A stretch of DNA of 64,000 nucleotides. Origin: Escherichia coli. GTDB lineage: Bacteria; Pseudomonadota; Gammaproteobacteria; Enterobacterales; Enterobacteriaceae. This document shows, piece by piece, positions 33,895-35,565 of the stretch. Location: the NCBI RefSeq assembly GCF_016903815.1, contig NZ_CP069973.1; one strand, 5' to 3'. The notes below the pieces were generated by a model that saw only the letters and a list, made by a program, of their open reading frames with translations, was not told where the DNA came from and searched no databases. Each line of letters begins with the position of its first letter. Within the stretch, counting starts at the first letter, position 1. The position numbers and the translations under genes were made by a program.

Positions 33895-34009
33895 GGTTCC
33901 TCCTTATCGTTCCCTTAAGAATACTGCGTGAGATAATAATGAGAAGCGGAGCACTCTGAAAGGAAGATGATGCTTTTTCTACCTCGCCATCGCGAACCAG
34001 ACACTGGTT

Positions 34010-34387
34010 TTAGTCATACTGTATTTGCGGAGAAACTGTTGATAAAACATCAATAACATCATTTGACGTGGCAATGACATAATGCTCGATCACATTATTT
34101 TTATAAATTTCACAACTTTGCATAGTAAACCATGCAAAGTAGGCGGAATTCACTACTCTATAGATCCCCGTTTGGTTAATACCGTGAATTCCTGACATTC
34201 CTAACAAATCACCTTCGTCAGTAACACGAAATGAATGTATCCAGTCAAATGATAACTTAACTTCTGACTTGATCGCCGGACATATGAGGGTAAGTTCAAG
34301 CCTGGCATTTTTATAGCTTAAATCTGATAGTTCGGCATTTTTAAAAGACAATGAAGTCGGAGTGATATTTATAAAACATTCATCCAT
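34010..34387 (-). CDS. Hypothetical small protein (125 aa), island gene C; no recognisable domain
   Basis: ATG-initiated ORF in AT-rich insert between hrpA and ydcF; co-directional with the two ORFs upstream. Confidence 0.5.
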   Translation of the reverse strand: MDECFINITPTSLSFKNAELSDLSYKNARLELTLICPAIKSEVKLSFDWIHSFRVTDEGDLLGMSGIHGINQTGIYRVVNSAYFAWFTMQSCEIYKNNVIEHYVIATSNDVIDVLSTVSPQIQYD

Positions 34388-34506
34388 GTTAATACCCCTT
34401 CATATATGAGACTGCTCTCGATAGACGACACATTAACCTTCTGCAAAAACGGTGCGAGTCTGTTTACGTACAATGTATAATCGATGGACATTACTGTGAT
34501 TTGAAA

Positions 34507-34956
34507 TTACCTTGTCCAGTCATCAACCATTTTTTTCAGGGGGAACATCTGCAATACATTCATTAATGCGAAATATAATTCCCCCTGTGGCACCCATATT
34601 CTAATCTTCTCATCCCCTAAAATGAAAAATTGCAATTGACGTTTGAAACCTAATGTTTTATCTTCAGGTAATTCAGCTTGTATTTTTTTATTGATATCAT
34701 CAAGGTAGATGTGATGACAATACTCATCAAACATACTCATTACTTCCAGACCGTTTACAGATGTCCATCTTTGTTCACTTTCCCAATAAACAAGAACCGG
34801 TTTGCGGCAGGTATATCTGCCTAAAAAGCGCTGAATGTGTTCTTCCTGATTCTCGTAAAATATTGCCTCTGCATTCGAGATTTGCCGACGCATTCGCCAG
34901 CGGATTTTTTCTTCATAAAAAGACAATTTGTCGCATTTGGTATTACTCAAATTCAT
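34507..34956 (-). CDS. Hypothetical small protein (149 aa), island gene B; contains D-E-Y-C-H-H motif
   Basis: ORF-track start is TTG; internal ATG (MNLSNTKCDK...) preferred; that ATG lies 14 nt upstream of the stop of gene A. Confidence 0.5.
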   Translation of the reverse strand: MNLSNTKCDKLSFYEEKIRWRMRRQISNAEAIFYENQEEHIQRFLGRYTCRKPVLVYWESEQRWTSVNGLEVMSMFDEYCHHIYLDDINKKIQAELPEDKTLGFKRQLQFFILGDEKIRIWVPQGELYFALMNVLQMFPLKKMVDDWTR

Positions 34957-35335
34957 TGTCAACAACTCGCATGGTTTTAAATATAAAATTTAAAAAACCG
35001 CCAAACAAATGAAGTGAAATTTCATACTTCTTTGCCTTATAAACAATTACCGCATCTTTAATATTACCTGCATTTTGGTTATCTATAAGTTCAGCAATAT
35101 CCATAACCTGCGATAAATGTTCCACTCCCGTAAACTCGAACCTTTTTCGTTCCCTTCCGGCTGTAAATTCATCAACATAAAGTTCTGCCGTCAATATAAA
35201 ATTATACTCGGTGTGGTGACATTCCATTCTGGTTTCTACTAAAACACCATCATGCCAGATAATATTGTCTAAATTTTTCATACTATTAATCCAATCCATT
35301 ACTTTCTGATAAAATTTCCTCTGGAAGTTTTTCAT
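34943..35335 (-). CDS. Hypothetical small protein (130 aa), island gene A; contains M-E-C-H-H motif
   Basis: ATG-initiated ORF in AT-rich insert; first gene after hrpA terminator. Confidence 0.5.
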   Translation of the reverse strand: MKNFQRKFYQKVMDWINSMKNLDNIIWHDGVLVETRMECHHTEYNFILTAELYVDEFTAGRERKRFEFTGVEHLSQVMDIAELIDNQNAGNIKDAVIVYKAKKYEISLHLFGGFLNFIFKTMRVVDNEFE

Positions 35336-35508
35336 AGAAAGAGATTAAAGCCTGACCGACGCAATCAAGCTCTATTATTCGCTCATAATACGATCTCATT
35401 AAAATATCATGCTTACTCATTGCAATACGTCCTGTTTACCATGGGCAGAGTATGAATGTAACTTATGTAAAATAGTACCGCCCTTGCTATTTTTCAGAAT
35501 TCATAAAG

Positions 35509-35541
35509 AAAAAACCCGGCGCTAAATGCTTACCGGGTTTT
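35509..35541 (-). terminator. Probable hrpA terminator hairpin (aaacccgg...ccgggttt + T-run on minus strand)
   Basis: 7-bp stem with 13-nt loop followed by T6 on minus strand, about 25 nt after hrpA stop. Confidence 0.45.
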
Positions 35542-35565
35542 AGATTTATCAGGCAAATAGCAGTG

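Follow-up and report, generated by a model that had tools for sequence, protein, structure and literature searches.

What is the function of the small, AT-rich genes that separate hrpA from ydcF in Escherichia coli assembly GCF_016903815.1? We studied this question in a stretch of 64,000 nucleotides of contig NZ_CP069973.1, hereafter called the window. Here ydcF (33094-33894) and hrpA (35566-39468), both on the minus strand, flank the two ends of a gap of 1671 bp, compared to a gap of only 271 bp in K-12 BW25113. A preliminary description of the window, based on the sequence alone, had remarked on this unusually long gap of about 1.67 kb, and suggested that it might contain an orphan immunity-gene array, a small toxin-antitoxin or a compact defence module. 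It regarded the function as not determinable from the sequence. With the comparative context added, however, a function can be inferred. The hrpA-ydcF island is probably an orphan poly-immunity array, consisting of the remnant of one gene (A) and three intact genes (B, C and D). The first of the three suggestions is thereby supported, because in other bacteria members of all four gene families directly follow a toxin gene of the Rhs, CdiA or MafB type.

The genes are named A to D in transcription order. The gap contains three minus-strand open reading frames (ORFs), of 130 amino acids (aa) at 34943-35335, 152 aa at 34507-34965 (149 from its ATG) and 125 aa at 34010-34387. These are the three co-directional ORFs reported previously and all of them are present, but the first is probably 112 aa rather than 130 aa long, and a deleted fourth gene had been overlooked. 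Gene B (112 aa, 34943-35281) carries the motif WHDG...DN..AGN and matches the hidden Markov model (HMM) of its family with E 2.3e-42. Its frame is open up to 35335, but the start at 35281 (MKNLDN) is the more likely one, because RefSeq and the relatives of B begin there. Gene C (149 aa, 34507-34956) overlaps gene B by 14 nt and has a conserved W...MFPL C-terminus. Gene D (125 aa, 34010-34387) carries the motif F.VTDEGD...W.F...H. Neither the family of C nor that of D has a Pfam model. What is left of gene A is a pseudogene with an ORF of 44 codons (35286-35420, minus strand), of which the first ~35 codons match positions 1-35 of the family-A HMM (E 5.9e-07). The window allele suffered a net deletion of 291 bp in this gene, with the junction at about 35290-35311. 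In RefSeq this stretch is likewise a pseudogene that lacks its C-terminus, and in O157:H7-type strains (L002) gene A is intact and encodes 141 aa. A further ORF of 40 codons (34369-34491, minus strand) occupies most of the 119-bp spacer between C and D; it has no homologue evidence and is probably not a gene.

No domain could be recognised in these ORFs in the preliminary description, and the databases were equally empty. Proteins B, C and D had no match in Pfam (even at E<=10), NCBIfam or PADLOC. The proteins of all three alleles of this locus, described below, gave zero PADLOC hits at E<=1, and PHROGs returned only weak hits of unknown function. Sequence searches of the PDB with the concatenated proteins and with profiles of B and D found nothing, and a word-indexed homologue search with protein C retrieved only close E. 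coli relatives. A phmmer search with the concatenated proteins A+B+C+D against 1.84 billion representative proteins (E<=1e-3) yielded 272 hits, which fall into four distinct families of stand-alone small proteins with similar lengths and conserved motifs. Among the best 150 of these 272 hits, supplemented with 8 from the word-indexed search with protein C, family A has 26 members, family B 21, family C 64 and family D 47, the latter sharing the motif DEGD...W.F...H. The possibility that the four families are paralogues of one another was rejected, since their hhalign probability is below 1%. When 124 members were scanned against Pfam one by one, the sole match was a CdiI_3 domain fused to the N-terminal side of one C relative. 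A tandem D-D fusion was found as well.

Cognate immunity genes of contact-dependent inhibition (CDI), Rhs and Maf systems are usually located directly 3' of the toxin gene, or overlap with it (PMC3150448). Relatives of all four families occupy this position; the genes in the window themselves do not. In a scan of species-representative genomes with a tightened alignment of family D, 5 out of 13 loci had a D relative only 6-7 bp after a large CdiA ORF containing the VENN motif (in the Enterobacterales Edaphovirga, Citrobacter, Serratia rubidaea, Yersinia artesiana and Providencia rettgeri). All five CdiA proteins share one end domain of ~90 residues ('...TTGRSKLFERTGG...DGRPTLEIQSGKNRIKFRYDE'). 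A CdiA-like gene on a Duffyella plasmid encodes a toxin end with 82% identity and is again followed by a D relative. Likewise, a MafB-like ORF of Neisseria gonorrhoeae has a toxin end with 37% identity, and within a few bases it is followed by an ORF matching the D profile (E 4e-10). Hence, at seven loci (L024, L027, L029, L030, L032, L048 and L049) family D is adjacent to a single type of toxin end, carried by both CdiA and MafB-like proteins. The Neisseria record (L048, NZ_CP119142.1) is filed as a plasmid, yet with its 2.17 Mb it is evidently a chromosome; it comes with almost no gene table.

The other three families are linked to Rhs proteins. Three B relatives, with 28-32% identity to B of the window, are separated by 26-43 bp from a preceding Rhs gene, which in one case encodes a VgrG-Rhs fusion of 2033 aa. 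All three Rhs C-termini share a cysteine-rich domain 'SGQWKxCGxGCRIRI...GRHLHWEC...' (L033, L042-L047). In family C, relative P0015, with 41% identity, shares bases with the end of a full-length Rhs gene, whose frame spans 1523 codons from stop to stop and lies downstream of Hcp and VgrG; an orphan piece of that Rhs C-terminus is likewise found ahead of P0015 (L008, L010 and L011). On five metagenome contigs (L036-L040), an Rhs C-terminus (PTSGTDPLGL plus about 145 aa) is followed after 67 bp by an A relative of 181 aa, with a PAAR-Rhs gene further on. Two other A relatives, P0019 and P0020, had no informative context, as their contigs are short and their neighbours lack domains. The association with CDI, Rhs and type VI secretion system (T6SS) loci, which the preliminary description had proposed to look for, is present in relatives of these families.

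The correspondence of one immunity family with one toxin family holds for D at seven loci and for B at three. Only one toxin type each was seen for families C and A, which makes this correspondence weak for these two families. From these linkages, gene B is predicted to encode an immunity protein for the Rhs C-terminal toxin family 'SGQWKxCGxGCRIRI...GRHLHWEC'. Gene C is predicted to encode an Rhs immunity protein. For gene D, the prediction is an immunity protein of the CdiI type, directed against one family of toxin ends in CdiA/MafB, 'TTGRSK..ERTGG...DGRPTLEI...IKFRY'. PDB sequence searches with three toxin domains and an NCBIfam search with two of the linked toxin domains found nothing. 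A near-identical pre-toxin segment, 'NPNVGKDLTDEEKNELGGAGSGSPNGWGPQDEENARN', occurs in the C-linked Rhs toxin (L008:7600-8062) and in the D-linked CdiA toxins (L024-L030, about 5700-5994), and is followed by unrelated toxin ends. It appears to be a pre-toxin module common to CDI and Rhs effectors.

Structural models built with AlphaFold from the family alignments were confident. The predicted folds resemble small binding domains without catalytic signatures, and protein C has a predicted PH-like fold. The best structural match of protein D is PIM7, the immunity protein of the polymorphic toxin PT7(Bc) (PDB 8owu), with a Foldseek E of 0.12 that is not significant. Sequence identity between the two is 10-13%, and PIM7 differs in its associated toxin and in the group of organisms. 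The likeness of D to PIM7 is one of fold rather than of demonstrated homology, and modest fold matches such as these count as supporting evidence only.

How did these genes arrive between hrpA and ydcF? Pairwise BLAST of the intergenic regions showed that 128 bp at the centre of the K-12-type gap are swapped for an unrelated AT-rich core of 1524 bp (33968-35491, minus strand). The window and K-12 have in common 73 bp beside ydcF and ~70 bp beside hrpA. The former (33895-33967, minus strand) is the conserved ydcF leader, which is found in all three alleles and marks where the variable site ends on its right-hand side; the segment containing it is 97.7% identical to K-12. The hrpA side includes the hairpin of the hrpA intrinsic terminator (35503-35549, minus strand), an inverted repeat (I5) followed by a T-run. 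It is retained between hrpA and the island and also in the empty allele, and the region is conserved in K-12. The island thus starts directly after this hairpin, as stated in the preliminary description. The same description called it an insertion. There is indeed extra foreign DNA at this position, but the insertion is not clean, as it replaces 128 bp of K-12 sequence. This K-12 filler was considered as a possible remnant of an array and rejected, because it has no similarity to any of the loci that we fetched.

The impression that the insert is far more AT-rich than its surroundings is borne out by computation. The gap has a GC content of 0.34-0.39, against 0.50-0.55 in the flanks, and the value of the core (0.36) is the lowest among all 1.5-kb stretches of the window (median 0.497). 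At third codon positions, GC contents are 0.29-0.39 for the island genes, 0.53 for ydcF and 0.61 for hrpA. No integrase, transposase or tRNA was found at the gap or its junctions, as had also been noted before. Significant repeats at the junctions were likewise not found, and a permissive Rfam scan of 33000-36500 detected no tRNA or other RNA family. A mobile element or integrase-mediated genomic island was therefore rejected; the junctions lie in conserved intergenic DNA.

We surveyed this site in 5426 complete genomes of E. coli, and found three alleles with shared junctions. The island allele (at least 80% present) occurs in 586 genomes (11%). Gene A is intact in 335 of these 586 genomes, and those listed are O157:H7-type. 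About 4640 genomes (about 85%) have the empty allele with K-12-type filler. In the remaining allele, found in 186 genomes (e.g., L003:1890-2680, E. coli strain 51489), the site contains an SMI1/KNR4-family gene and a 99-aa gene on the opposite strand. In this SMI1/KNR4 allele the final ~17 codons of gene D are still present, and hence it probably arose by displacement of an array containing D. IS1 elements were found inside the island of one strain and inside the SMI1/KNR4 allele of another (H1, NZ_CP173463.1, and H31, NZ_CP030768.1). The island is accessory, foreign in its composition, and has alternative cassettes at the same place. Neither of the observations that were to refute the preliminary description was made, namely the three genes being present here in most E. 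coli with confident housekeeping homology, or a composition and codon usage like those of the flanks. Exchange and erosion of the array by recombination are indicated by the common junctions of the three alleles, the leftover end of gene D, the deletion in gene A and the IS1 insertions.

Beyond E. coli, the same site is used in other species and genera. A cryptic-clade Escherichia carries an ORF of 238 aa followed by A, B, C and D between hrpA and ydcF. E. whittamii has a fragment of C together with D between the two genes, and in E. albertii, where the contig begins inside the array, C and D adjoin ydcF. In a cryptic-clade Escherichia (L020:3760-4554) and on a metagenome contig (L035:207-1064), an extra gene ahead of A encodes a DUF7021/DUF2262 protein of 285 aa. 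Other genera, in which HrpA is 94% and YdcF 57-61% identical, have different arrays of small genes directly after hrpA. One of these arrays has DUF596, CdiI_3 and LprI together with a D relative and a gene of 142 aa; a second has relatives of A and B plus a gene of 217 aa. The array of contig L013, which is short and does not include hrpA itself, starts like these hrpA-side arrays and has DUF596, the CdiI_3+C fusion, an ankyrin gene, a B relative, a 138-aa gene and a D relative. Families A-D are thus mixed with annotated immunity types (DUF596, CdiI_3, LprI and ankyrin genes) in the hrpA-side arrays of other genera. The slot just 3' of hrpA is a variable site that is probably exchanged by recombination, where lineages and genera keep different immunity cassettes.

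The array in the window is probably an orphan. There is no toxin ORF in the gap, and no ORF with the hallmarks of Rhs or CdiA was found in the 64-kb window. The DNA of each of the four linked toxin domains, queried along with the immunity gene next to it, had no match in the 5426 complete E. coli genomes. Since a matching toxin gene is lacking beside the array, its most likely role is defensive. Genes A-D would represent four unrelated small cytoplasmic proteins from families of cognate immunity proteins, directed against Rhs/T6SS toxins (A, B and C) or CdiA or MafB (D). If neighbouring Enterobacterales inject toxin domains, then each of the proteins B, C and D, once expressed, would bind and block one family of them, delivered by T6SS-Rhs in the case of B and C and by CdiA in that of D. 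The carrier would be protected without producing the toxin, and would survive attacks to which the ~85% of E. coli that have the empty allele succumb. The array would be exchanged and eroded over time by homologous recombination in its conserved flanks.

Several of our results weigh against a protective array. Immunity is usually narrow, and the proteins in the window have only 28-47% identity to their toxin-linked relatives. Therefore, the real cognate toxins of these E. coli proteins may be different variants, or may be extinct. The searches for toxins in E. coli covered complete genomes at the nucleotide level and detect identities of roughly at least 65-70%, such that a diverged toxin would escape them. 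Furthermore, no convincing promoter was found for the island, gene A is a pseudogene in this strain, and some strains have an IS1 in the island. The context of the relatives is not uniform either. The B-family member P0135 (L034:5456-5818) is part of an ABC-transporter cluster that has no toxin in its vicinity, where a gene for a solute-binding protein and a GyrI-like gene flank it. In L007/L008, another gene separates the D relative from the Rhs C-terminus, so that D comes second rather than first. Finally, the dN/dS ratios (nonsynonymous to synonymous substitution rates) of the island genes are 4-20 times those of the flanking genes, albeit from small counts, which also fits relaxed constraint.

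A rival explanation is that the genes descend from immunity genes but are now useless in E. coli, with the array drifting to loss as it has in most lineages. Besides the deletion in gene A, the IS1 insertions in some carriers, the prevalence of the empty allele in 85% of the complete genomes and the failure to find cognate toxin DNA in E. coli, the substitution patterns are relevant here. A comparison of the window with the O157 allele, which are about 8% apart, gave a dN/dS of 0.60 for B, 0.53 for C and 0.27 for D, against 0.07 for ydcF and 0.03 for hrpA, all resting on small counts. Yet, the values in the island remain below 1, and fast evolution is usual for immunity genes. The reading frames have also been preserved. 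In the examples that we read, B, C and D are intact in both E. coli alleles and in a cryptic Escherichia clade. The copies of C and D in E. albertii and of D in E. whittamii are intact as well, without frameshifts. Moreover, orphan immunity does not require a resident toxin. Fast evolution, a dN/dS below neutrality and intact frames across species are consistent with rapidly evolving, functional immunity genes, and we consider it unlikely that the array is merely a decaying remnant.

Two further explanations seem much less probable still. One is that the co-directional small genes form a self-contained toxin-antitoxin or anti-phage module. They are compact, AT-rich and accessory, B and C overlap by 14 nt, and one relative lies beside a PIN/HTH pair. 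However, PADLOC, Pfam, NCBIfam and PHROGs provided no match with a toxin, antitoxin or defence protein, and the corresponding suggestions of the preliminary description are unsupported. The four families occur singly and in varying order and combination, each next to a secreted polymorphic toxin, and their predicted folds are those of small binding domains rather than catalytic ones. We hardly give more credit to the idea that the proteins assist the RNA helicase HrpA in its function. This would explain why both Escherichia species and genera in which HrpA is only 94% identical have members of A, B and D immediately behind hrpA and oriented like it, and it could extend to L013, where an array with C, B and D relatives begins like the hrpA-side arrays although hrpA is not on the contig. 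Yet, hrpA has retained its terminator ahead of the array, the genes are missing from 85% of E. coli, and the slot also houses unrelated immunity types that are already known. In addition, Yersinia, Serratia, Providencia, Neisseria and metagenomes have members of these families beside toxins, at a great distance from hrpA.

An orphan immunity array at this site would not be without precedent. The 'T6SS immunity islet' at the yegQ locus of Salmonella Typhi is an orphan immunity islet of the Enterobacteriaceae (Barretto and Fowler, 2020, PMC7400221), so that the earlier characterisation of our island as a candidate for an undescribed system no longer applies. Both islands are AT-rich, lie between core genes, are limited to certain lineages and have alternative alleles at their site. 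Most of their genes are small, lack recognised domains and have relatives beside T6SS/Rhs and CDI toxins. The resident genome is without these toxins in Salmonella Typhi and probably also in our case, judged from the DNA-level searches of complete E. coli genomes. In contrast, the hrpA array is found at another locus, has 3-4 genes versus 14, lacks Rhs/PAAR fragments and a transposase, and consists of other protein families; the hrpA slot is also used in several genera. Members of our families resemble CdiI and RhsI (Poole et al., 2011, PMC3150448) in that they are small, are located directly after the 3' end of the cdiA or rhs toxin or overlap with it, and that a given immunity family goes together with a single family of toxins. 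The genes in the window differ from CdiI and RhsI, as they have no adjacent toxin and no match with a Pfam CdiI or Imm model.

Immunity-gene arrays can be formed by cassette displacement, as in the T6SS arrays of Vibrio cholerae (PMC5361080). The hrpA array resembles such displacement arrays, since a 3' piece of gene D is left over in the SMI1/KNR4 allele. It differs from the V. cholerae arrays because it has no attached T6SS, Rhs or CDI locus and sits next to a housekeeping helicase gene. The hrpA array shares with poly-immunity loci that unrelated immunity genes occur in tandem and in the same direction, and that fusions (CdiI_3+C, D-D) are found. The wider concept of poly-immunity stems from the comparative genomics of polymorphic toxin systems. 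Our island is a known kind of accessory island at another locus, smaller, and built from four families without a Pfam or NCBIfam model. We found no paper on it in searches of the literature by locus or by RefSeq protein accession.

A broader proposal is that the hrpA 3' flank acts as a conserved, integrase-free 'immunity slot' across the Enterobacteriaceae, in which antidotes are stored, swapped and eroded. It would comprise four new immunity families with definable cognate toxin families, and the content of the array would predict which CDI and T6SS attackers are withstood (e.g., by O157:H7 and ST38-like strains). We consider this proposal in its full extent about equally likely to hold or to fail. 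If our main reading of the island is correct, it would assign a testable function to 3-4 'hypothetical proteins' in about 11% of the complete E. coli genomes, including the O157:H7 lineage. It would also add four pairs of toxin and immunity families that are outside Pfam and NCBIfam, with toxin domains that have no match in NCBIfam or among solved structures. The hrpA 3' flank would then be a recurrent store of defensive immunity genes, with a bearing on the competition between gut strains and on the outcome of contact-dependent antagonism. This would not be a new kind of system; it would be useful for annotation and testable, and unsurprising to specialists.

Other parts of the window also differ from K-12 or deserve mention. 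An intact ORF of 333 aa at 30415-31416 (plus strand) encodes a GapC-like glyceraldehyde-3-phosphate dehydrogenase, whereas gapC is a pseudogene in K-12. Another intact ORF, of 2026 aa (48517-54597, minus strand), is autotransporter-like and has about eight tandem 'PVPPDDGGDT' repeats near its N-terminus. It resembles ydbA, which is disrupted in K-12. The stretch with the second-lowest GC content of the window (about 0.40) begins near 54300. Finally, a small hydrophobic ORF of 49 aa at 29057-29206 (plus strand) is similar to the Hok family (MKRNPLLVCLLIICITILTF...), and matches the HOK_GEF gene at the equivalent place in L005.

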